DNA from: a virus
Taxonomy: Duplodnaviria > Caudoviricetes
Strand: one strand, 5' to 3'
IMG/VR virus record: IMGVR_UViG_3300030380_000249
Location: 1 to 58,094 of that record
DNA length: 58,094 bases
The notes under the pieces are model-generated. The model made no database searches. It saw only the letters and a program-made list of their open reading frames with translations, and had not been told where the DNA came from. Numbering within the stretch: the first letter of the stretch is position 1; the number at the start of each line of letters is the position of its first letter. Positions 25,584 to 47,664 of this stretch are shown piece by piece. Both the position numbers and the translations under genes were made by a program.

Positions 25584-26045
25584 TTAGCCAAGGTTATTGT
25601 TTTGAGCATACAAAATAGTAACGCGAACTTCACCAGCAGTGGTTGAAGCAGAGGCCGTTACAGTCAAACGAATGTCTGCTGTTCCTGTGTCTTCCCATGC
25701 TAAAGCACCACCAGATTGAGTGGTCGGATACTTGCGGCCTGCGCTTGTTCCAATAGCAAAAGTGTTAACTAAGGTTGCTGCACCGCCAACGGTATCTCCA
25801 ACACTCAGGTTAGTTGCATCACTTGACGCGGTAATAACGTCAATCACGCAGTCAATGATCTGAGAGTTTGCAGGAATAACAACGTCAGTAACAGAAGCAG
25901 TTAAAGCGCCCCCAGAAAGATCTGCTGCAAATGTCTGAGACATAACAACTTGACCGACGTTGGAAATGTTTGAGCCTAGGGTCGTGCCTGTTGTGTTCTT
26001 GATGGTTCCGGCTTTAATAGGACCAGAGAAAGTAGAAGTAGCCAT
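25584..26045 (-). CDS. Putative capsid decoration/cement protein
   Basis: MATSTFSGPIKAG N-terminus, IPANSQI.D motif, AGGAG SD, first gene after the MCP. Confidence 0.6.
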   Translation of the reverse strand: MATSTFSGPIKAGTIKNTTGTTLGSNISNVGQVVMSQTFAADLSGGALTASVTDVVIPANSQIIDCVIDVITASSDATNLSVGDTVGGAATLVNTFAIGTSAGRKYPTTQSGGALAWEDTGTADIRLTVTASASTTAGEVRVTILYAQNNNLG

Positions 26046-26112
26046 TTAAATCTCCTGTCGTGGCTAGAGTCAGATCTATTCTAGATCTGTCAGGGTACGA
26101 ACAGGATACACG

Positions 26113-26144
26113 AAAAAAGACGGAGCCGCAAATTCTACGGCTCC
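26113..26144 (-). terminator. Intrinsic terminator after the major capsid gene
   Basis: On the minus strand, GGAGCCG-loop-CGGCTCC hairpin followed by GTCTTTTTT. Confidence 0.65.
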
Positions 26145-26233
26145 AAGTTTAGGGAGGAAACTACTGTAACAGAAGAAAGGGCGACTTGATTGCCATAAAG
26201 CCGCCCTTTCGCCTAGCTGGAGGACTAGGATTC

Positions 26234-37696: not shown

Positions 37697-38070
37697 TTAA
37701 TTTGTGGATCTTGCAACAGGTGCCTAGGTCGAACAGAAAAACATGGGAATGAATGTACCCATCTAGGGCGGGTGGGTGGGCGCGCGCAGCGCCCCGTCTT
37801 GTCAAGGGGGTTGGGGCGTCAGTAATTTGACATGTTGCCCGATATTGTCCCAAGTAACCCTAATATTATTACGCCTGGCCTGGGCGACAGAGTAATTTTA
37901 TTACAAGGTTTTTTGTGCTGGTGTCAAATTGTTGACAAATAAAATGTATTTTATTTGTTGTTTGGTGTTGCATGTTGTCTCATTTTAGCTTAATGTCATA
38001 GGACATTAAGGGAAATCGGACGGCAATAGCCAAGCGACCCCAAAGCAACCTAGTCTATTGGAGGACTAAA
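37697..38070. promoter_or_regulatory. Divergent early/late control region, candidate physical genome end
   Basis: Non-coding gap between the minus-strand late arm and plus-strand early genes. Contains a G4 motif, palindromes TGTCAA-N4-TTGACA and AAATAAAAT-GT-ATTTTATTT, and AT-rich promoter-like sequence. Confidence 0.6.
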
Positions 38071-38364
38071 ATGACTAAATCACAATTTGCTCGTCGCCAT
38101 ACATATGACGCATTAACAGAAGCGGAACAGATTGCCTTCTGTAAAGAGATGCTGACGCTATGGCGCGAGACATTGGTAGGCCTACATGGCCTAAAAGATC
38201 AACACGATTTCGCAAAAGGCCAAGCTAAGTTTTGGAATTTGGAGCGAAAGGATGTTGAGAGACACGCCATTGAGGCGGGTCTCGCATATCACGATCCACA
38301 AGAGTTTGAATATGAGGCGAAAGCGGCATACACGCAAATTCGTCAGATGTTCAAGTGGAAGTGA
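38071..38364 (+). CDS. Early hypothetical protein
   Basis: Strong TGGAGGACTAAA-ATG leader. Confidence 0.7.
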   Translation: MTKSQFARRHTYDALTEAEQIAFCKEMLTLWRETLVGLHGLKDQHDFAKGQAKFWNLERKDVERHAIEAGLAYHDPQEFEYEAKAAYTQIRQMFKWK

Positions 38365-38372
38365 TAAACCTA

Positions 38373-38402
38373 GCCGCCGGCATCACGCCGGCGGCGCTTT
38401 TT
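38373..38402 (+). terminator. Intrinsic terminator
   Basis: GCCGCCGGC-ATCAC-GCCGGCGGC hairpin followed by GCTTTTT. Confidence 0.65.
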
Positions 38403-38415
38403 GGAGGACTACAAA

Positions 38416-38655
38416 ATGACTAGACCACTACCTTTCAAATGCCTAGTGGGTGACGATCCAGAAGAGGTCACGAACCCATTCAGTGGTGAGAGCGTCACCA
38501 TTCCAGCCGATGCCGTGGCCGTCTATGACGTTACCATGGGCATGAATTGGATGGCAGAGCAAAGCAACAACCCAAAGCACTGGGCGGTTGTTCGCAAAGG
38601 TCTTGATTGGTTCAGGCAATACGAACCAAAAGCCTACATGGTTCTTTTGGACTGA
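38416..38655 (+). CDS. Early hypothetical protein
   Basis: TGGAGGACTACAAA-ATG leader. NPFSGES...AVYD...GLDWF...P.AYMVLLD. Confidence 0.7.
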   Translation: MTRPLPFKCLVGDDPEEVTNPFSGESVTIPADAVAVYDVTMGMNWMAEQSNNPKHWAVVRKGLDWFRQYEPKAYMVLLD

Positions 38656-38843
38656 TGGCGGCTGTCAAACTTGGCATGATGCTAGCGGGATTATTCCTGC
38701 TAGCGTCTGCCCATCTAATCTTCGGGCTGGTGGAACCGCTCGATGATCTAGGCCATCAGGTCATGCGACTAGCCATGATCCTACACGCTGGCGCAGCCTT
38801 CTACTGCGCGGCACTACTACACATCATGCGGAGGCGGCGCTAG
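38655..38843 (+). CDS. Small early membrane protein
   Basis: TGATG overlap, two hydrophobic segments, ends inside a terminator hairpin. Confidence 0.5.
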   Translation: MAAVKLGMMLAGLFLLASAHLIFGLVEPLDDLGHQVMRLAMILHAGAAFYCAALLHIMRRRR

Positions 38844-38857
38844 CCGCCTCCCTTTTT
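38830..38857 (+). terminator. Intrinsic terminator
   Basis: GGAGGCGGC-GCTA-GCCGCCTCC followed by CTTTTT. Confidence 0.7.
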
Positions 38858-38934
38858 ATTTGCCTAGATTTTATATGCTATAGTCTTACGCCTATAGCAG
38901 AGGGCGGCGCCCTACTGGTGACTAAAGCCACCAG

Positions 38935-38978
38935 TCCCGAACCCGACCCGACCCGAAACATAGCGAACCCGACCCGAA
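38935..38978 (+). repeat. CCCGA pentamer cluster
   Basis: cccgaacccgacccgacccgaaacatagcgaacccgacccgaa. Similar clusters at 40396-40440 and 41603-41701. Confidence 0.8.
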
Positions 38979-38984
38979 CATTTA

Positions 38985-39048
38985 ATTTGTTTTGTGTTTG
39001 TTAATGTGTATAATGAGGATTCAACAACAGTCTATGGAGGACAACAAA
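38985..39048 (+). promoter_or_regulatory. Sigma70-like early promoter plus conserved leader
   Basis: T-rich TTG region, TATAAT at 39009-39014, then GAGGATTCAACAACAGTCTATGGAGGAC. Near-duplicate at 39381-39420. Confidence 0.7.
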
Positions 39049-39312
39049 ATGAATATCGTATTTATCACAGACCAAGGACATGGCTGGGGCATCGTTTCAA
39101 AAGAACAGCTTGCGGCTGCGCGGATGTCTGCGGCAGATTTCTCACAATGCTCATACCAAACGCCTAATGGTGAGATATACGCGCTGGAGGAAGATTGCGA
39201 TTTTCCAAAGTATCTGAACAAACTTGACAGCATGGGCACGAAATATGAGATCACAGATCGCTATGTTGACGAGGATCACAGAGACAATCCAAGATCATGG
39301 GATAGGATTTAG
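39049..39312 (+). CDS. Early hypothetical protein
   Basis: F.TD.GHGW...S..SY....YALEEDCD motif. Strong SD. Confidence 0.7.
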   Translation: MNIVFITDQGHGWGIVSKEQLAAARMSAADFSQCSYQTPNGEIYALEEDCDFPKYLNKLDSMGTKYEITDRYVDEDHRDNPRSWDRI

Positions 39313-39329
39313 TTCCTCCATAGGACGGA

Positions 39330-39356
39330 AAGAGCGGCAGAGATGCCGCTCTTTTT
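39330..39356 (+). terminator. Intrinsic terminator
   Basis: AAGAGCGGCA-GAGA-TGCCGCTCTT followed by a T-run. Confidence 0.75.
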
Positions 39357-39420
39357 GTTTGTGTTTAGTTTGTTATTCGATATAATGAGGATATCAACAA
39401 CAGTCTAATGGAGGACTAAA
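39357..39420 (+). promoter_or_regulatory. Sigma70-like early promoter plus conserved leader (second copy)
   Basis: TATAAT at 39381-39386, then GAGGATATCAACAACAGTCTAATGGAGGACTAAA-ATG. Confidence 0.7.
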
Positions 39421-39789
39421 ATGACTATGCTTAAATTTAAAAGCAAGGAGTTTACGCGAATGATTCAGCACATGCTGAAGAGCGAGCGCAAAATTCCTTA
39501 TGTGGACGAGACCACAGATGAATATGGTCTGTGGCTTGTTAAGGATGAGGGCATCTATGTGATGTCGCCATCGCCAGAGCGTGACATTGTCAGCAAGAAC
39601 AAGTGCCATGTTATCTATGCGCGCGGATATTCTCCGCGCGTCAAGGATTTATGGGAAAAGACTCATGCGGTAAGCGGAGACGATTTCGCAGAGTTTATCC
39701 CATTGTCTGAACAACAGATGAAACGAGTCGCATTGTTCGGTGAATTGGACATTCGTCTCACAGAAACGGAGGTATCAATCTATGCCTAA
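39421..39789 (+). CDS. DUF3085-like protein
   Basis: LWLVKDEGIYVM...YARG......GDDFAEFI signature. Confidence 0.7.
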   Translation: MTMLKFKSKEFTRMIQHMLKSERKIPYVDETTDEYGLWLVKDEGIYVMSPSPERDIVSKNKCHVIYARGYSPRVKDLWEKTHAVSGDDFAEFIPLSEQQMKRVALFGELDIRLTETEVSIYA

Positions 39790-40240
39790 TTGGTGTCAGA
39801 ATGTAATCTATGTGTCCCATGAGGACGAAAACAAGATGGTGGCGTTGAAAGACGCCATCATCAATGGCGAGATGTGCGACCATATCAAACCCATGCCAGA
39901 AGCATTGAAGGATACAACATCTCCTTCAGACTCTCCTAATTGGTATGATTGGGCGTGCGATAATTGGGGCACGAAATGGGATGTCTGTTCGCCATGGGAT
40001 ACAGATGAAATCTATAGCGATGAGAATGGCGAGACATATGTGTTCAAATTCGACACAGCATGGTCGCCACCAATTCCTGTATATGATGAGATGATTAAAC
40101 AGGGATTCCATCTGGTCGCGCGTTATGTGGAATATGGTTGCGGATACCATGGCGAATATTCTGTTGATGGGGATTTCTATCACAATGAAATACAGAACGG
40201 GGATGAGATAGACGAACATCTCCAATCTGAATACGCCTAA
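39782..40240 (+). CDS. DUF1281/YubB ferredoxin-like protein
   Basis: MPNWC.N...WYDW...NWGTKWD...F.TAWSPP signature. Confidence 0.75.
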   Translation: MPNWCQNVIYVSHEDENKMVALKDAIINGEMCDHIKPMPEALKDTTSPSDSPNWYDWACDNWGTKWDVCSPWDTDEIYSDENGETYVFKFDTAWSPPIPVYDEMIKQGFHLVARYVEYGCGYHGEYSVDGDFYHNEIQNGDEIDEHLQSEYA

Positions 40241-40337
40241 CAATGGGGAGCGCGGCAGGTGTCGCGCTCCTTCCTTTCCTTCACCAGTCCGCAGCGGATG
40301 GGCTGGCATCCTCGAGACTCGAGTGTTATATATTAGT

Positions 40338-40389
40338 TATGGTCCTCCAACCATAGACGGCGCCCTGGGCATGGCCCAGGGCGTTTTTT
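40338..40389 (+). ncRNA. Candidate small RNA or 3' UTR element: anti-SD hairpin plus terminator
   Basis: TATGGT-CCTCCA-ACCATA hairpin, then CGCCCTGGGC-ATG-GCCCAGGGCG-TTTTTT. Confidence 0.4.
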
Positions 40390-40505
40390 ATTAGTCCCGA
40401 ATCCCGAACCCGACTCGAGGCTGCTGAACCCGAACCCGAATCTTTTTATTTGTTTCCTGGTTGTTTTTAGCTTATATTTAACTTGTGAACTATGGAGGGT
40501 TACAC

Positions 40506-41108
40506 ATGTTAAAAATATCAAACATGACAGGGAAACTTGCCGGATTCAAAGCGTTGAATACAAACACGCTTACAAATCCGTATTGTCAAAAAATGAATGC
40601 TGTTGATGATGACAACATCATTTGCAAACATTGCTATAGCGTTGAGATGCTAAACGGATTGCGCAAAAATTGCGCTCCATCATGGCAACGGAACAGTGAC
40701 ACGTTGTCGGGCGGGTTGATTCCTCCGCATATGTTACCGACAATCCTAGACGCATTTTTCAGGTTTTCCGGTCATGGTGAATTGATCAACATGACCATGC
40801 TGGAAAACTTCCACAACATCACGTTGCACAACCCACATTGCTCTTTTGCCTTGTGGACAAAGCGCAAGAATTTCATTCGCAAGTTTTACAGCCAGAATGA
40901 AAAGCCGGCTAATCTGATTCTGATTTACAGCAACCCGCGAATTGACGCGGTAATGAATCAGCCGCCGGAGTTTTTTGATCGGACGTTCAACAATGTCCAC
41001 AAGGACAGCGACGTTGAGCAAAACTGCACCGGCCAAAAATGCAAGGATTGCTTGCTTTGCTACACGCAAGGCAATGGCGTCACCACCATCGTTGAGGCAG
41101 TAAAATGA
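40506..41108 (+). CDS. Gp88-like Cys-rich (Fe-S/radical-SAM-like) protein
   Basis: K...C...CxxCY...FRF..HGE...WTKR...C...C..C.LC pattern. GGAGG SD. Confidence 0.6.
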   Translation: MLKISNMTGKLAGFKALNTNTLTNPYCQKMNAVDDDNIICKHCYSVEMLNGLRKNCAPSWQRNSDTLSGGLIPPHMLPTILDAFFRFSGHGELINMTMLENFHNITLHNPHCSFALWTKRKNFIRKFYSQNEKPANLILIYSNPRIDAVMNQPPEFFDRTFNNVHKDSDVEQNCTGQKCKDCLLCYTQGNGVTTIVEAVK

Positions 41109-41374
41109 TTATTGAAACGCAACAGCAAAAGGACAGCATCATTGCTGTCCTTGAAAACATGATCGAAAACTATCACGACATGCGCGACGAGTTAGGCGAC
41201 GAGGGCGCCTATCCAAATGAAGAAGACTGCGAGATTGTCCTTGCCGACATACGCGCCGCGGGTTCGTTTCCAGTCAAACTATCGCTCCACACAACAGCCG
41301 AAGACATGTATCTCACAGCGTGGGAACAATACAACGAGTGCCGCGAGCACTGGCACGAGGTGATCACATGGTAA
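41105..41374 (+). CDS. Acidic hypothetical protein
   Basis: ATGA overlap with the upstream gene. Confidence 0.6.
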   Translation: MIIETQQQKDSIIAVLENMIENYHDMRDELGDEGAYPNEEDCEIVLADIRAAGSFPVKLSLHTTAEDMYLTAWEQYNECREHWHEVITW

Positions 41375-41526
41375 AACCAGCAATGACAAAAGAAGATATC
41401 ATCATGCACATAAAGCACATTGTCGTTGAGCAATGCGAAAAGGAACCAGAAGATCGGGATTGGTTCGCAGCCTTTGGCGCCCTAATCGACAAGATCGAAG
41501 ACAGCATAAAGGAGGAGGAGGCCTAG
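41368..41526 (+). CDS. Small hypothetical protein
   Basis: GAGGTG SD before MVKPAMTKED. Confidence 0.5.
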   Translation: MVKPAMTKEDIIMHIKHIVVEQCEKEPEDRDWFAAFGALIDKIEDSIKEEEA

Positions 41527-42032
41527 GCCTCCTCTACCTCGAGCCCAGGTTGCTGTGACCCTGGTACTGGCGCCCCAGTCCCTAGCTCCCCTAGAGCTGG
41601 ATCCCCGAATCCCGAATCCCGAAGTCCCGATAGCACTGACTCTAGGTACCCGACCCCCGCCTCCCGAATCGCGTCCCATAAGATCGACCCCGAACCCCGA
41701 AACTCGGCCCCAGCTGCCAGTCCCGACTTGGCTACGTCCAAGGCTCTCGCGCCCCGAAACAAAAATAGCTCGCCCGAAGAGAGGTGCTTAACCAAGATGA
41801 ATGACAAGCCGCCCGAACGAGAATAGGCGGTATTCCACGCTATTTGCTGTGGAGATATTCTGACACTGTTGTTTTTTGTTGTTTTTAATTCTAACCAAAA
41901 CACAAGCCCTGACCATGCTACATGTACGTCAGGTACGCCGCCACCATGGCGGTTTTCGATTCGGGTTGTATGACAGTTACTCGGCAGGTTCCTGCGAATG
42001 GTGTTCCAAAAGTTCGCCTCCGGTGTCGGCAT
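41523..42032 (-). CDS. PD-(D/E)xK nuclease, VRR-NUC/Holliday junction resolvase-like
   Basis: E..FW...RIEN..GGGVPDV......FWLELK......S.QQ..W. Confidence 0.75.
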   Translation of the reverse strand: MPTPEANFWNTIRRNLPSNCHTTRIENRHGGGVPDVHVAWSGLVFWLELKTTKNNSVRISPQQIAWNTAYSRSGGLSFILVKHLSSGELFLFRGARALDVAKSGLAAGAEFRGSGSILWDAIREAGVGYLESVLSGLRDSGFGDPALGELGTGAPVPGSQQPGLEVEEA

Positions 42033-42534
42033 CAACTACCTCCGTATATTCACCCTCAATGAACGCCTGCGGATACTCGCGCCGGAGCTGATTCAAACGA
42101 GAGGTGATCTCTTCACGCGACAGATCGTCTAGCTGATGAATGTTCTCTCGCCTATCCACTGTCAAGCCACCAAGTGCAGAGCGAATCTTTTCAGCATTGA
42201 TTGCAGCTGAGAATTGACCTGCCTCCTCGGCGCCAGACGATAATTCATGAAGACGTTTAAGCTGACCCATCACGGTCACGCCATAACGGCGTTCTCGTTC
42301 TTCACGAAGTTCTTGTATGTAATCGGTGAGGTGAGGAAACTTTTTGCCGGCTAACAGGTGCCCAGCAATAGAGGCTGCTGAGTTGGATGCATAGCCTGCC
42401 TTTCGGGCACATTCAGCGTTGGAATAGATGCCTTCAACATAGTGCCGAGCGAACTCACGCTGACGCTGGGTCAATTTGCGTCCAGTCTCGGCCTCAATGT
42501 CATCTGCAAGAATGTCTGTCTTCTTGTTACACAT
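41977..42534 (-). CDS. terS: Terminase small subunit
   Basis: LT.RQ..F...YV......A..AGYA..SA...G..LL HTH signature of small terminases, followed by SAAI.AE. Confidence 0.8.
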   Translation of the reverse strand: MCNKKTDILADDIEAETGRKLTQRQREFARHYVEGIYSNAECARKAGYASNSAASIAGHLLAGKKFPHLTDYIQELREERERRYGVTVMGQLKRLHELSSGAEEAGQFSAAINAEKIRSALGGLTVDRRENIHQLDDLSREEITSRLNQLRREYPQAFIEGEYTEVVDADTGGELLEHHSQEPAE

Positions 42535-42800
42535 GTCACACTACTACCCCATAAAAACGCTGTTTTGAAGCCCTTTTGAAAAAAGGCATTTTACCTGGAT
42601 TTTGAGATGTTGTCCTATAGTGTCTCCATACTGTGACAAGTGTGCCAAAAATGCTTAGAAGTGTGCCAAAGAAAACTCCTTGCTCCGCCTTGTGTTGAGA
42701 GGTTCTTGTCACACTTGTCACACTTGTCACACCCTATTCTAAAAAATTTTAAAAACTTTTTTCCAGCAAAAACACTGTACCAAACGTGACAAACGAGACA
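42535..42800. repeat. Cluster of TGTCACAC/GTGACA-like repeats in a divergent intergenic region
   Basis: Three tandem TTGTCACAC at 42706-42732, AGTGTGCCAAA twice (about 42639 and 42660), plus copies near 42535, 42632 and 42786. Confidence 0.75.
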
Positions 42801-42812
42801 CGGTTCTTATGT

Positions 42813-42872
42813 TGTTGCATGCTGTCTCGCTCTGTGTATAATAACAATTAAATATCAGTCTTGGAGGACGTT
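42813..42872 (+). promoter_or_regulatory. Sigma70-like promoter for the middle operon
   Basis: TTGCAT-N16-TATAAT (42815-42842), followed by the CAGTCTTGGAGGAC leader. Confidence 0.65.
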
Positions 42873-43052
42873 ATGGAAGTACAGCAAAGAATTGAGGTCC
42901 AAGGTTCACGGATCGAATACGTTGTATACTGTGACTGGTGCGCCGGTCATGGGTACGAGCCAACGCCTTATGGTGATGTCGTAGATTGCGACAAGTGTCA
43001 GGGCACATGTGTAAAGTTTCGTCATGTAATGGAGGAAGACAATGGGAACTAG
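42873..43052 (+). CDS. Small DnaJ-type zinc-finger protein
   Basis: CDWCAGHG...CDKCQGT. Confidence 0.6.
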   Translation: MEVQQRIEVQGSRIEYVVYCDWCAGHGYEPTPYGDVVDCDKCQGTCVKFRHVMEEDNGN

Positions 43053-43452: not shown

Positions 43453-44512
43453 CGGAATGTCATGTGGGAGGCTGGCCTTGGAAAGGGCTGGCTTTCCTAT
43501 CACCAACTACTTTGCCAGCGAGATTGACAAGTATGCGATTGAGGTGGCGAGGGCCAACTATCCTGACACGGTGCATCTGGGTGATGTGACCACAGTGGGT
43601 ACAAAACATGGTCGTCTTTTTTATGAGGATGAAAACGGTGTTGGGTGTGGCGCGGACATTGATCTGCTGATTGGCGGCTCGCCTTGTCAGGGATTTTCGT
43701 TTGCTGGCAAGCAACTCAACTTTGACGACCCGCGTTCCAAGCTCTTCTTTGAGTTCGTGCGGCTGTTGAAAGCGTTGAAGCCAAAGTATTTCCTGTTGGA
43801 GAACGTCAATATGAAGAAAGAATATCAGGACGTTATATCTGACCTTCTGGGATGCAAGCCTGTGGACATCAACTCAAACCGTGTAAGCGCGCAGAATCGG
43901 CGCCGTTTGTATTGGACGAACATTCCAGTCAAGTCTTTGCCGGAGAACAAGCATGTCTATTTGAAGGACATCTTGGAGGATGGGTTCACGGATCGGGATA
44001 AGTCGCATTGCATTGACGCGAACTACTTCAAGGGCGGCAATCTGAAATCGTATTTTCAGAAGAACCGCCGCCAGCTTGTGTTTGATTTTGACGATCAGAC
44101 GGAAGACGGATTGCAGTTGGCTGGCGAGGCAGACCTAAAGGGTCACGGCTACAATCGCCGCGTCTATCATCCGGATGGCAAAGCACCAAGTTTGTGTGCG
44201 GCATCTGGTGGCAATCTGGAGCCTAAGATTCTTCAAGTTGCGAGGGGCAAGAACCAAGGCGGCATCAAGGCGGACGATGGGAAGGTTCCCACGTTGAGCG
44301 GATCGTCATGGGAGCATAACAATTTCTTGGCAGTTGACGGTATGAAGTGGCGCAAGCTCACGCCCGTTGAATGTGAGCGATTGCAGACCGTGCCGGATGG
44401 ATACACGGATCATGTGTCGAACACCCAGCGTTATCGGATGTTAGGCAACGGCTGGACCGTTGATGTGATCTGTCATTTGCTGGAGGGCATGAGGGATGTT
44501 GCCCATCAGTAG
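43430..44512 (+). CDS. DNA (cytosine-5) methyltransferase
   Basis: Motif I LFDGMSCG, IV GGSPCQGFS, VI LLENV, VIII QNRRRLYW, IX/X ECERLQT..D.Y and LGNGW. Confidence 0.93.
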   Translation: MNVLSLFDGMSCGRLALERAGFPITNYFASEIDKYAIEVARANYPDTVHLGDVTTVGTKHGRLFYEDENGVGCGADIDLLIGGSPCQGFSFAGKQLNFDDPRSKLFFEFVRLLKALKPKYFLLENVNMKKEYQDVISDLLGCKPVDINSNRVSAQNRRRLYWTNIPVKSLPENKHVYLKDILEDGFTDRDKSHCIDANYFKGGNLKSYFQKNRRQLVFDFDDQTEDGLQLAGEADLKGHGYNRRVYHPDGKAPSLCAASGGNLEPKILQVARGKNQGGIKADDGKVPTLSGSSWEHNNFLAVDGMKWRKLTPVECERLQTVPDGYTDHVSNTQRYRMLGNGWTVDVICHLLEGMRDVAHQ

Positions 44513-46435: not shown

Positions 46436-47218
46436 TTAGAACAGACTCAGCTGCTCCGGTTCGCGCATGATCTCGTCTATGTCCTTGTGCATGATCTCGG
46501 TGAACTCAATGTCACAGAAGTTGCCGCAGTCAGGCATGATGAACTTCTGTTGGGCGCCCTCGTTAGACTCTAGTTCATCAAGGTAGACTCCGCGAATACA
46601 AGAGTTGCCGACTTGCCGCTCGGCCTCGGCCATGCGTTCAAAGTAGTCTGGGAAGTCTCGCCTGATCTTGTTCCAGTATCCCTTGCCGCCTTTGACGCAG
46701 CCGATGCAGTTGTTGTTGCCGTAGCCCAGCTTGTACATGGCAGGTCGTTCTATGCCGGCCTGTTCAAGGTAGTACAGGCACTCTGGCTTGGTCAGCTTCT
46801 TTTCAATCAATGGAAAGATCGGCTTGGCATCTGGGTATTGTTCTTGGAATCGGATGGCGCGGTTGACCTCCTTCTTGGAATACTCAAACCCAAAGACCTG
46901 TGCCTCGTACTCCATCTCCTTTTCGATTCGCTGCCGGACTCGTTTCTTGAGCACCAGCGTGCATCGAGCACCACCAGGCCCGTTGACGTACTTGTCTTTG
47001 GTGATGACATCAAACTGATTACTGTGCTTGTGGGACTTGGTCACCATGATGTCCCGACCATACCAATCCTCGCACTCCCGAATGAACCGCTCGTTGTCAC
47101 GGTGCGCTGTGTCAATGTGGAAGTAGATCGGGAGCACCCGATCCTTGCCGTACTTGTCTATCGCCAGCTTGGTCGCCACCGCACTGGTGACGCCAGCCGA
47201 CCACCACGAAATGATCAT
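46436..47218 (-). CDS. PAPS-reductase-family (adenine nucleotide alpha-hydrolase-like) protein
   Basis: ISWWSAGVTSAVA PP-loop-like motif, H.DN.RF, CT..LK, FPLI...C, MY.LGY.NNNCIGCVKG. Confidence 0.7.
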   Translation of the reverse strand: MIISWWSAGVTSAVATKLAIDKYGKDRVLPIYFHIDTAHRDNERFIRECEDWYGRDIMVTKSHKHSNQFDVITKDKYVNGPGGARCTLVLKKRVRQRIEKEMEYEAQVFGFEYSKKEVNRAIRFQEQYPDAKPIFPLIEKKLTKPECLYYLEQAGIERPAMYKLGYGNNNCIGCVKGGKGYWNKIRRDFPDYFERMAEAERQVGNSCIRGVYLDELESNEGAQQKFIMPDCGNFCDIEFTEIMHKDIDEIMREPEQLSLF

Positions 47219-47664
47219 GCTTCCCACCTAAACTTCAGCTGCCCATAGATTGGTTGCCAGTTCCGATTTCCGCCTTTGGGAGTCCACCTGTCATGCGGCT
47301 TAACCTCACCGACGATCTTCCAACCGGCGCCCCGAAGCGAGGATCCAGACTCTTCTTGCAGGGTATATGTGACCATGCGCTTGCCACCCATCTGTTGCCA
47401 GATCCGCCAACACCTCCCGTAAAGAAAACTGCACGAGTTTTTGGGTGCGTGATCCACGACACAAACTCTGGTAACCTCGGCTGTTAGGCCGTCATCTAGC
47501 GTGGCAGAGACAGGACGCCCCACGACAGCTACCCCGACAAGCTCGTTGTCATATATCGCACCTATCGCAAACTTCCCCCCTTGTGTCGGCTTGTTGTGCC
47601 GGTGGAAGTTCTCAACGAACTCGTTTGCTTCTCGCAGACTCAGTGGCGTAACTTCAAGTTTCAT
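47215..47664 (-). CDS. XF1762/Mom-like GNAT-fold protein
   Basis: PLSLREAN.FV..FHRH...VGVAVVGRPV....D....EVTR...YTL..ESG.SL.G.GW. Start MKLEV at 47664. Confidence 0.65.
   Translation of the reverse strand: MKLEVTPLSLREANEFVENFHRHNKPTQGGKFAIGAIYDNELVGVAVVGRPVSATLDDGLTAEVTRVCVVDHAPKNSCSFLYGRCWRIWQQMGGKRMVTYTLQEESGSSLRGAGWKIVGEVKPHDRWTPKGGNRNWQPIYGQLKFRWEA

Follow-up and report, generated by a model that had tools for sequence, protein, structure and literature searches.

We analysed IMG/VR virus record IMGVR_UViG_3300030380_000249, a complete, linear phage genome of 58,094 nt (CheckV completeness 100) that is called the window hereafter, and describe a short intergenic element, D, located on the plus strand behind a two-gene early operon. 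As judged from the comparison of relatives, D is a conserved and covarying structured RNA module, in which a hairpin with an invariant anti-Shine-Dalgarno (anti-SD) loop stands directly ahead of an intrinsic terminator. The loop and its closing pairs complement the extended Shine-Dalgarno sequence (SD) of five promoter-proximal early genes, and in one relative the loop and several leaders carry a matching change. On balance, these observations incline us to the view that D, as the 3'-terminal part of its transcript, is an anti-SD riboregulator and would occlude the ribosome-binding sites of early genes.

Structure and conservation of element D

A preliminary description of the region had pointed to the hairpin TATGGT-CCTCCA-ACCATA (40338-40355), to a GC hairpin and T6 directly behind it, to a related word at a second site (element C, below) and to a shared word in five early leaders, and we found all of these where it had placed them. 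The features around D are as follows.

40337-40356, plus strand: element D, a 7-bp hairpin UUAUGGU/ACCAUAG with loop CCUCCA at 40344-40349 (folding)
40359-40389, plus strand: intrinsic terminator with a 12-bp GC-rich stem (9 of 12 pairs GC), a 3-nt loop and T6 (terminator scan)
40245-40272, ~40284-40306 and 40311-40323, plus strand: three more hairpins between the stop codon at 40238-40240 and D (folding)
40326-40336, plus strand: AT-rich stretch TTATATATTAG, a candidate -10 box, RNase E site or Hfq site (reading of the sequence)

The stem arms of D (40337-40343 and 40350-40356) extend the hairpin described earlier by one further U.G pair, and the loop together with its closing pairs forms the anti-SD word GUCCUCCA at 40342-40349. 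Two nucleotides separate the hairpin from the terminator (stem-loop 40359-40385, T6 40384-40389), which shows the GC-rich stem and following U-tract of an intrinsic terminator and was the top-scoring match in the terminator scan of the region. The 71-nt stretch 40325-40395 folds as hairpin plus terminator with a minimum free energy of -30 kcal/mol (z-score -3.95, equalled by none of 200 shuffles), and the intergenic region 40236-40395 folds into five successive hairpins (-69.6 kcal/mol, z-score -4.2). Since the first hairpin past the stop codon, 40245-40272, has no proper U-tract, transcripts of the upstream operon would be expected to reach D. A search of the whole window against Rfam at gathering score returned Mu-gpT-DE as the sole match, and a search of 38800-40520 at E <= 10 gave nothing above chance level around C and D; the highest-scoring match, STnc50, had 28.1 bits against a gathering score of 55.

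Relatives were collected through the two proteins that flank D. Among the 54 homologous loci with an inspected upstream region, 15 have the hairpin and terminator at the orthologous site; these are all the loci in which the 200-amino-acid neighbour is at least 82% identical, and none at 76% identity or less has the module. Additional contigs beyond these 54 loci also carry it. The 21 sites tabulated show 13 distinct hairpins, with arms that differ between lineages yet stay complementary: UUAUGGU/ACCAUAG, UCUAGU/ACUAGA, UACUAGU/ACUAGUA, GUUAUAGU/ACUAUAAC, UCGUAGU/ACUACGG and CUUGUUG/CAACAAG. A scan of metagenomes for loop variants, in which 80 of 237 loci were kept, found new stems and left contig L086 as the only other loop variant.

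Covariation was analysed in an alignment of 22 orthologs (A4) fitted to a covariance model built from 12 sequences with 7-nt loops. The alignment had been rebuilt in this way because MAFFT and the first model, R1, placed sequences with 6-nt loops out of register. In A4, which favours structure as it is fitted to a model made from 12 of its own 22 sequences, 98.6% of the cells fall in standard pairs; shuffled alignments gave 80.4 ± 1.4%, and none of 500 reached the observed value. The raw hairpin table, which involves no model fitting, shows the same compensatory changes. Changes on both sides were found in 10 of the 17 pairs, namely 3 of 7 in the hairpin (helix 1) and 7 of 10 in the terminator (helix 2); 99.3% of the cells of helix 1 pair, and in a control with the partners slid by 1-3 columns the paired fraction falls to 33-51%. 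The loop word CCUCCA is present in all 22 orthologs and is preceded by GU in 21. The loop itself is CCUCCA or CCUCCAU (6-7 nt) in 19 of the 22, with outliers of up to 12 nt, and the spacing between hairpin and terminator is constant at 0-3 nt. The sole invariant portion of the hairpin is the loop plus its closing pairs, GUCCUCCA(U). The preliminary description had proposed covariation in relatives as a check and had counted loss of the loop in relatives against its reading; the compensatory stem changes and the constant loop both mark the hairpin as an RNA structure under selection.

Model R1 did not find the module in Pelagibacter phage HTVC023P, phage DSL-LC04 or Roseobacter phage CRP-901. 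The best match in these three cultured relatives (24.4 bits) was a palindrome with a terminator and had no CCUCC in the hairpin loop, and it was rejected.

Complementarity between the loop and the early leaders

The word TGGAGGAC occurs 11 times in the window against 1.75 expected, a count that none of 100 shuffles reached. At 38059, 38402, 39035, 39409 and 42862 it forms the SDs of the promoter-proximal early genes 38071, 38416, 39049, 39421 and 42873, respectively, and in these leaders it is usually preceded by GUCU(A). The anti-SD word GUCCUCCA complements UGGAGGAC, the extended SD of the same five leaders. The complementarity proposed earlier between the element and the early leaders goes beyond the GGAGG core; it also covaries in one lineage. 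The leaders are listed below with the free-energy change on cofolding with D or C (ddG), a measure that charges the cost of opening the hairpin.

38054-38066, plus strand: leader GUCUAUUGGAGGAC, SD of gene 38071, proposed target; ddG with D -14.0 kcal/mol
38402-38409, plus strand: leader UGGAGGAC, SD of gene 38416, proposed target; ddG with D -11.8 kcal/mol
39030-39042, plus strand: leader GUCUAUGGAGGAC, SD of the 87-amino-acid gene whose 3' end carries element C; ddG -11.2 with D and -12.6 with C
39404-39416, plus strand: leader GUCUAAUGGAGGAC, SD of the DUF3085 gene, the first in the operon that ends at D; ddG with D -13.8
42858-42869, plus strand: leader GUCUUGGAGGAC, SD of gene 42873, proposed target; ddG with D -10.0

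With the five UGGAGGAC leaders, D gains -10.0 to -14.0 kcal/mol, and C and A, two further copies described below, gain -9.3 to -13.8 kcal/mol; the start regions of the capsid gene and of genes 39782, 40506 and 41105 gave 0 to -6.1 kcal/mol. In a plain duplex screen of 77 start regions, the leaders of 38071, 39421, 38416 and 39049 came within the top seven. In a crude list of starts, late genes mostly have GGAG or AGGAG, and three late starts with GGAGG have an A ahead of the core. The canonical 3' tail of 16S rRNA reads ..CACCUCCUU.., and the U before GGAGG and the AC after it are not expected to extend pairing with the ribosome. The same flanks, U and AC, do extend the pairing of the leaders with GUCCUCCA of D.

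In L086, the loop region of D is GCCCUCCAAU (loop GCCCUCC). Of the 10 GGAGG leaders on both strands of this contig, 6 read GGAGGGC and none GGAGGAC. Among the other 13 distinct D-bearing contigs tabulated, GGAGGAC is the commonest heptamer, alone or tied, in 10. The switched leaders include those of the 87-, 121-, 200- and 61-amino-acid genes, whose counterparts in the window, by order and length, are led by GGAGGAC or GGAGGGU. In a swap test, D of L086 matched its own nine plus-strand leaders over a mean of 9.0 contiguous nt, with six of nine at 8 nt or more. On the leaders of other genomes its match fell to 5.8-6.5 nt, and 0-3 of those leaders reached 8 nt; the D elements of other genomes reached 8 nt on just 0-2 of the nine L086 leaders. 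Read from these comparisons, L086 represents a reciprocal change of loop and leader specificity, in which several separate sites changed together.

Further copies, proposed action and rival explanations

A scan for CCUCC in hairpin loops, together with the covariance model, uncovered three further elements in the window.

39313-39357, plus strand: element C, UUCCUCCAUAGGA (word 39313-39325) directly after the stop codon of the 87-amino-acid gene, then a terminator (39326-39357); model R1 14.4 bits, E 0.013
26212-26229, minus strand: element A, hairpin CCUAGU-CCUCCA-GCUAGG, 4 nt past the capsid stop codon (loop scan)
26107-26184, minus strand: element B, GUUUCCUCCCUAAACUU in a small hairpin with a terminator (sub-threshold match to Rfam RF00519, suhB/mmgR)

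Element C includes TTCCTCCATAG at 39313-39323, ahead of the terminator. Relatives keep motif and terminator almost unchanged, including those with a different coding sequence upstream, and an 18-mer across both is exact in 17 IMG/VR contigs. The cassette 39313-39420, composed of the anti-SD word, the terminator, a T/G-rich promoter region and the leader, is nearly invariant between non-homologous coding sequences and was also observed in L005, L006, L014, L071, L077 and L086; it resembles a mobile regulatory boundary and might mediate gene shuffling. Similar cassettes of promoter and stem-loop occur in T4-type phages. Another anti-SD word lies in the terminator 38830-38851 (plus strand), whose own stem is GGAGG...CCUCC, with GGAGG contributed by the coding end and the anti-SD word in the descending arm, which may be a coincidence.

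Behind element A comes a GC hairpin (~26210-26175) whose U-tract is weak. Element A is kept in the records of three relatives (G002, G003 and G005), whereas 14 more distant relatives, binned in metagenome-assembled genomes (MAGs), lack it behind their capsid gene. In G003 and G005, A and D share 14-15 identical nt and, within each genome, the same extended loop word. Element B directly follows A, between the capsid gene and the Mu-gpT-DE motif, and its core is kept in the three relatives. It scored 34.8 bits against RF00519 (gathering score 41; E 1.6e-5 over the 501 nt searched) and has GUUUCCUCCCUAAACUU as in the family consensus; the copies of B in the three relatives gave no Rfam match at E <= 0.01. 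The likeness of B to suhB/mmgR is one of resemblance only, and B may have been copied by the phage from this alphaproteobacterial anti-SD small RNA (sRNA) or may have come to look like it by convergence. The Mu-gpT-DE RNA that follows B (26043-26095, minus strand; 59.6 bits, and 62.6-68.8 bits in the three relatives) is a separate observation; the 3' part of its model spans the SD and ATG of the next gene, which starts at 26045.

In the reading that we favour, D would most likely be transcribed together with the early operon 39421-40240, as the last part of its RNA; the operon's two genes are the DUF3085 gene and a DUF1281_C-like gene (Pfam). The loop would pair with the extended SD UGGAGGAC of promoter-proximal early leaders, the leader of its own operon included, and this pairing would block 30S binding and so lower the translation of early genes. 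The same anti-SD word would also be provided by element C, behind an early gene, and by element A, behind the capsid gene, which is highly expressed; A would do so late in infection. Transcription of D and the ends of its transcript are inferred, and its action in trans or in cis and repression as the outcome are proposed on the same footing. A further-reaching idea, which we put forward only tentatively, is that of a private translational code: the SD flanks of the early leaders, UGGAGGAC, may be under selection for pairing with anti-SD hairpin RNAs made by the phage instead of with the ribosome, the element in the 3' untranslated region (UTR) of the capsid mRNA might be a phage-autonomous timer that stops early translation once late transcription starts, and loop and leaders might co-evolve as lock and key, as in L086.

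Several observations weigh against the regulator reading. The top seven of the duplex screen also include the late genes 9874 (minus strand, ranked second) and 13779, and the duplex energies are only modestly better than those of shuffled D (2 of 200 shuffles reach the mean of the top five), because any C-rich word pairs with SDs. The co-variation in trans comes from a single lineage, L086, and represents one evolutionary event. L005 has two GGAGGGC leaders together with a GUCCUCC loop, some leaders elsewhere mismatch their D, and element C retains UCCUCCAUAGGA in L086 despite the changed leaders. A scan of 20 proteins, 10 from the early region near D and 10 further along, yielded no RNA chaperone. 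Finally, none of the RNA pieces listed covers 40240-40400, which makes them uninformative on the transcription of D. Six RNA runs contained only 5-14% of the sampled words, and the runs with at least half of the words were all DNA. Four RNA runs gave low-depth contigs of diverged relatives, of which the listed pieces cover 39030-39389 and 39600-40177, and one contig from an RNA run joins 40239 to 40385 across undetermined letters.

Among the rival explanations, we regard as fairly unlikely a fold-back that acts purely in cis between the 5' and 3' UTRs, similar to that of icaR, in which the anti-SD word at the 3' end pairs only with the first-cistron SD of the same mRNA and produces autoregulation, perhaps as an RNase III substrate. 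C and D fit such a model because each complements the leader of the unit at whose end it lies (C with the leader at 39030 over ~12 bp, ddG -12.6; D with the leader at 39404, ddG -13.8). Moreover, the leader of D's own operon in L086, AUUGGAGGGC, is a perfect 10-nt match to its D, and icaR itself provides a precedent (PMC3868564). Element A argues for action in trans, since it follows the capsid gene and shares only the 5-nt core with the capsid SD, UAAGGAGGCU (ddG -3.6), although its match to three early leaders extends over 10 nt. An anti-SD word is also missing ahead of the terminator of the first early unit, 38071-38364. The hairpin could instead be recognised by a protein or an RNase, or stabilise the 3' end, with a protein partner as the reason for loop conservation and cassette duplication as the source of the complementarity to the leaders. 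The constant spacing to the terminator and the position at the 3' end would suit a stabiliser or processing signal, and the early regulatory cassettes are indeed repeated DNA. This explanation is unlikely in our judgement, as it accounts neither for the parallel change of loop and leaders in L086 nor for the leader flanks that are not expected to pair with 16S rRNA, and the scan of 20 proteins gave no candidate RNA-binding protein. It is improbable, too, that D serves as an insulator against read-through, pairing past the terminator with the SD of the next gene, 40506, and so restricting translation of that gene to transcripts from its own promoter. Relatives show 8-10 nt of complementarity between D and the downstream leader, which has also switched in L086 (UGGAGGGC), but cofolding with D brings no gain for the 40506 start region of the window (ddG 0.0), the GGAGA-type SD that follows A is a poor match to A, and the terminator of D is strong.

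We consider it very improbable that D is a separate sRNA of ~50 nt with a promoter of its own, directed mainly against host mRNAs. The preliminary description had noted a -10-like stretch upstream of the hairpin, and an AT-rich sequence is present there, with TTATATATT at 40326-40334 and TGGCAT 17 nt upstream (TGGCAT-N17-TATATA, 40304-40332). This pair of -35- and -10-like boxes with 17-nt spacing occurs in the subgroup of the window, and L004 and L005 have TTGACT-N17-TATTTT at the equivalent position. A promoter of its own is conceivable for D in some subgroups. The stretch is kept in the closest subgroup only, the boxes are not conserved across subgroups, a scan for sigma-70-like promoters called no site upstream of D, and transcription from these boxes would be predicted to begin within the 5' half of the hairpin stem. 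Model R2, run over four MAGs and 121 genomes sampled from the family of one of them, a candidate host family, found no similar module; it gave two weak matches only, one of which (G007) is a terminator alone and the other (G078) was not inspected. The last alternative, that there is no RNA element and that the word is the SD of a minus-strand mini open reading frame, a DNA-level site in either orientation or a product of chance, appears largely refuted on comparative grounds. On the minus strand TGGAGGAC does resemble a leader, and some other covariance-model matches, at 38416-38364 of the window and in L005, L067, L069 and L084, are truly reverse complements of a real SD and ATG beside a terminator and were discarded. 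None of the 22 orthologs of D, though, has ATG, GTG or TTG on the minus strand 3-13 nt after GGAGG, which excludes the mini open reading frame that had been named earlier as an alternative, and arms that vary and stay complementary indicate a folded single strand rather than half-sites for a protein.

Genomic context, known systems and significance

The window encodes structural genes on the minus strand up to ~37.7 kb, beyond which short early genes are grouped on the plus strand (38.0-41.5 kb). In its capsid protein the phage shares 72.4% identity with Pelagibacter phage HTVC023P and 58.7% with Roseobacter phage CRP-901. The close relatives of the phage are uncultured marine contigs, and a megablast search of 38000-43000 against INPHARED phages gave no match. 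The MAGs that contain capsid-gene relatives span many unrelated phyla, the nearest ones with a Rhodobacteraceae label, and since the bins belong to so many unrelated phyla the binning of these relatives is unreliable. Close capsid-gene relatives (contigs L149-L163) were binned with Planctomycetota, Verrucomicrobiota, Chloroflexota and an archaeon, and these phage contigs are probably mis-binned. No tRNA genes were found.

We also observed short-repeat arrays of the CCCGA(A) type at 38930-38980, 40392-40440 and ~41560-41760, right after terminators and upstream of early promoters. Such arrays are found in distant relatives too (e.g. L020, L038 and L039) and may be regulator-binding sites or UP-like elements. 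CTCGAG palindromes are repeated in intergenic hairpins of the early region (40311-40323, 40414-40419 and ~41540). A lone minus-strand gene similar to the terminase small subunit (41977-42534; Pfam Terminase_2, 5e-9) lies within the early region, and the repeated words GTGACA and TTGTCACAC at 42620-42800, which adjoin it, may be operator or packaging sites. Additionally, the window has a gene set that resembles a DNA-modification system, with a C-5 cytosine DNA methylase (43478-44512, plus strand), a PAPS-reductase-domain protein (46436-47218, minus strand) and a Mom-family protein (47215-47664, minus strand).

The preliminary description had compared the element with the cuckoo/CcsR type of sRNA. 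The cuckoo, CcsR and alpha-r14 (NfeR1) RNAs of Alphaproteobacteria are described as having hypervariable stems and an unpaired anti-SD in the loop, and the CcsR RNAs of Rhodobacter sphaeroides as being cut by RNase E from an mRNA 3' UTR and targeting translation-initiation regions (PMC7143759, PMC4615179, PMC8034643). The cuckoo definition given in PMC4615179 comprises 2-4 adjacent hairpins and the 9-nt motif CCUCCUCCC in loops of 9-27 nt. Element D is similar in its hypervariable stems and conserved loop (13 hairpins among 21 sites, both-side changes in 3 of 7 pairs, loop in 22 of 22). It differs in having a single motif hairpin with a terminator in place of 2-4 adjacent hairpins, and a loop of 6-7 nt, CCUCCA(U), in place of CCUCCUCCC in the larger loops; it matches no Rfam model of that family or clan in the searches described above. 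The context is different as well, as cuckoo RNAs are chromosomal and often accompany DUF1127 genes, whereas D belongs to a phage genome and its proposed targets are the phage's own leaders; DUF1127, the neighbour of the CIN1 subgroup, was not found by Pfam among the 20 proteins scanned. We conclude that D is not a member of the cuckoo family, as far as motif, loop size and hairpin number tell, and that the comparison with cuckoo/CcsR is apt as an analogy.

MmgR has been described as an Hfq-dependent RNA with an anti-SD motif. Element B has the core GUUUCCUCCCUA.ACUU and a terminator laid out as in the consensus of MmgR/suhB (RF00519, alpha-r8), but it scores below gathering, the copies of its relatives have no match, and D itself has none. 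In Staphylococcus aureus, a 3'-UTR anti-SD word of icaR is described as pairing with the SD of its own mRNA and blocking initiation (PMC3868564). C and D are comparable to icaR in that each complements the leader of its own unit, with which it would share a transcript. The icaR motif UCCCCUG, the organism and the length all differ from D; here the word lies in a covarying, terminator-adjacent loop, at several loci, and also after a gene with an unmatched SD. In the c4 antisense RNA of phages P1 and P7, loop sequences are described as preventing translation of a phage mRNA by pairing at and near its ribosome-binding site (PMC12197685). It is likewise a phage-encoded RNA aimed at a phage ribosome-binding site, with the difference that it has one dedicated target (ant) and governs immunity, whereas in the window the word addressed is a generic one of early leaders in an apparently lytic marine phage. 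Rfam includes a C4 model, and neither the window nor D matched it in the searches described above. The C-rich-loop sRNAs of Firmicutes, among them RNAIII with its UCCC loops, have conserved C-rich loops that seed pairing with ribosome-binding sites, as outlined in PMC4615179; these are unrelated in sequence, host-encoded and much larger. As analogies, icaR seems the nearest precedent for action in cis and c4 the nearest for a phage regulator of ribosome-binding sites. No description of the present module was found in the open-access literature text searched.

Hardly anything has been explored of how lytic marine phages use RNA for control, and the phage sRNAs found in print (PMC12197685) are mostly from coliphages and prophages. 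Element D represents a compact and repeatedly used anti-SD module, with comparative support from covariation and from a natural compensatory switch of regulator and target. The clade that carries it has the pelagiphages of the abundant HTVC023P type and roseophages among its relatives. If the proposed reading is true, the phage would time or limit its early proteins without a protein repressor, the module would form a new structured-RNA family for the databases, and GUCCUCC/GGAGGAC and GCCCUCC/GGAGGGC would provide an orthogonal natural pair of regulators and leaders.

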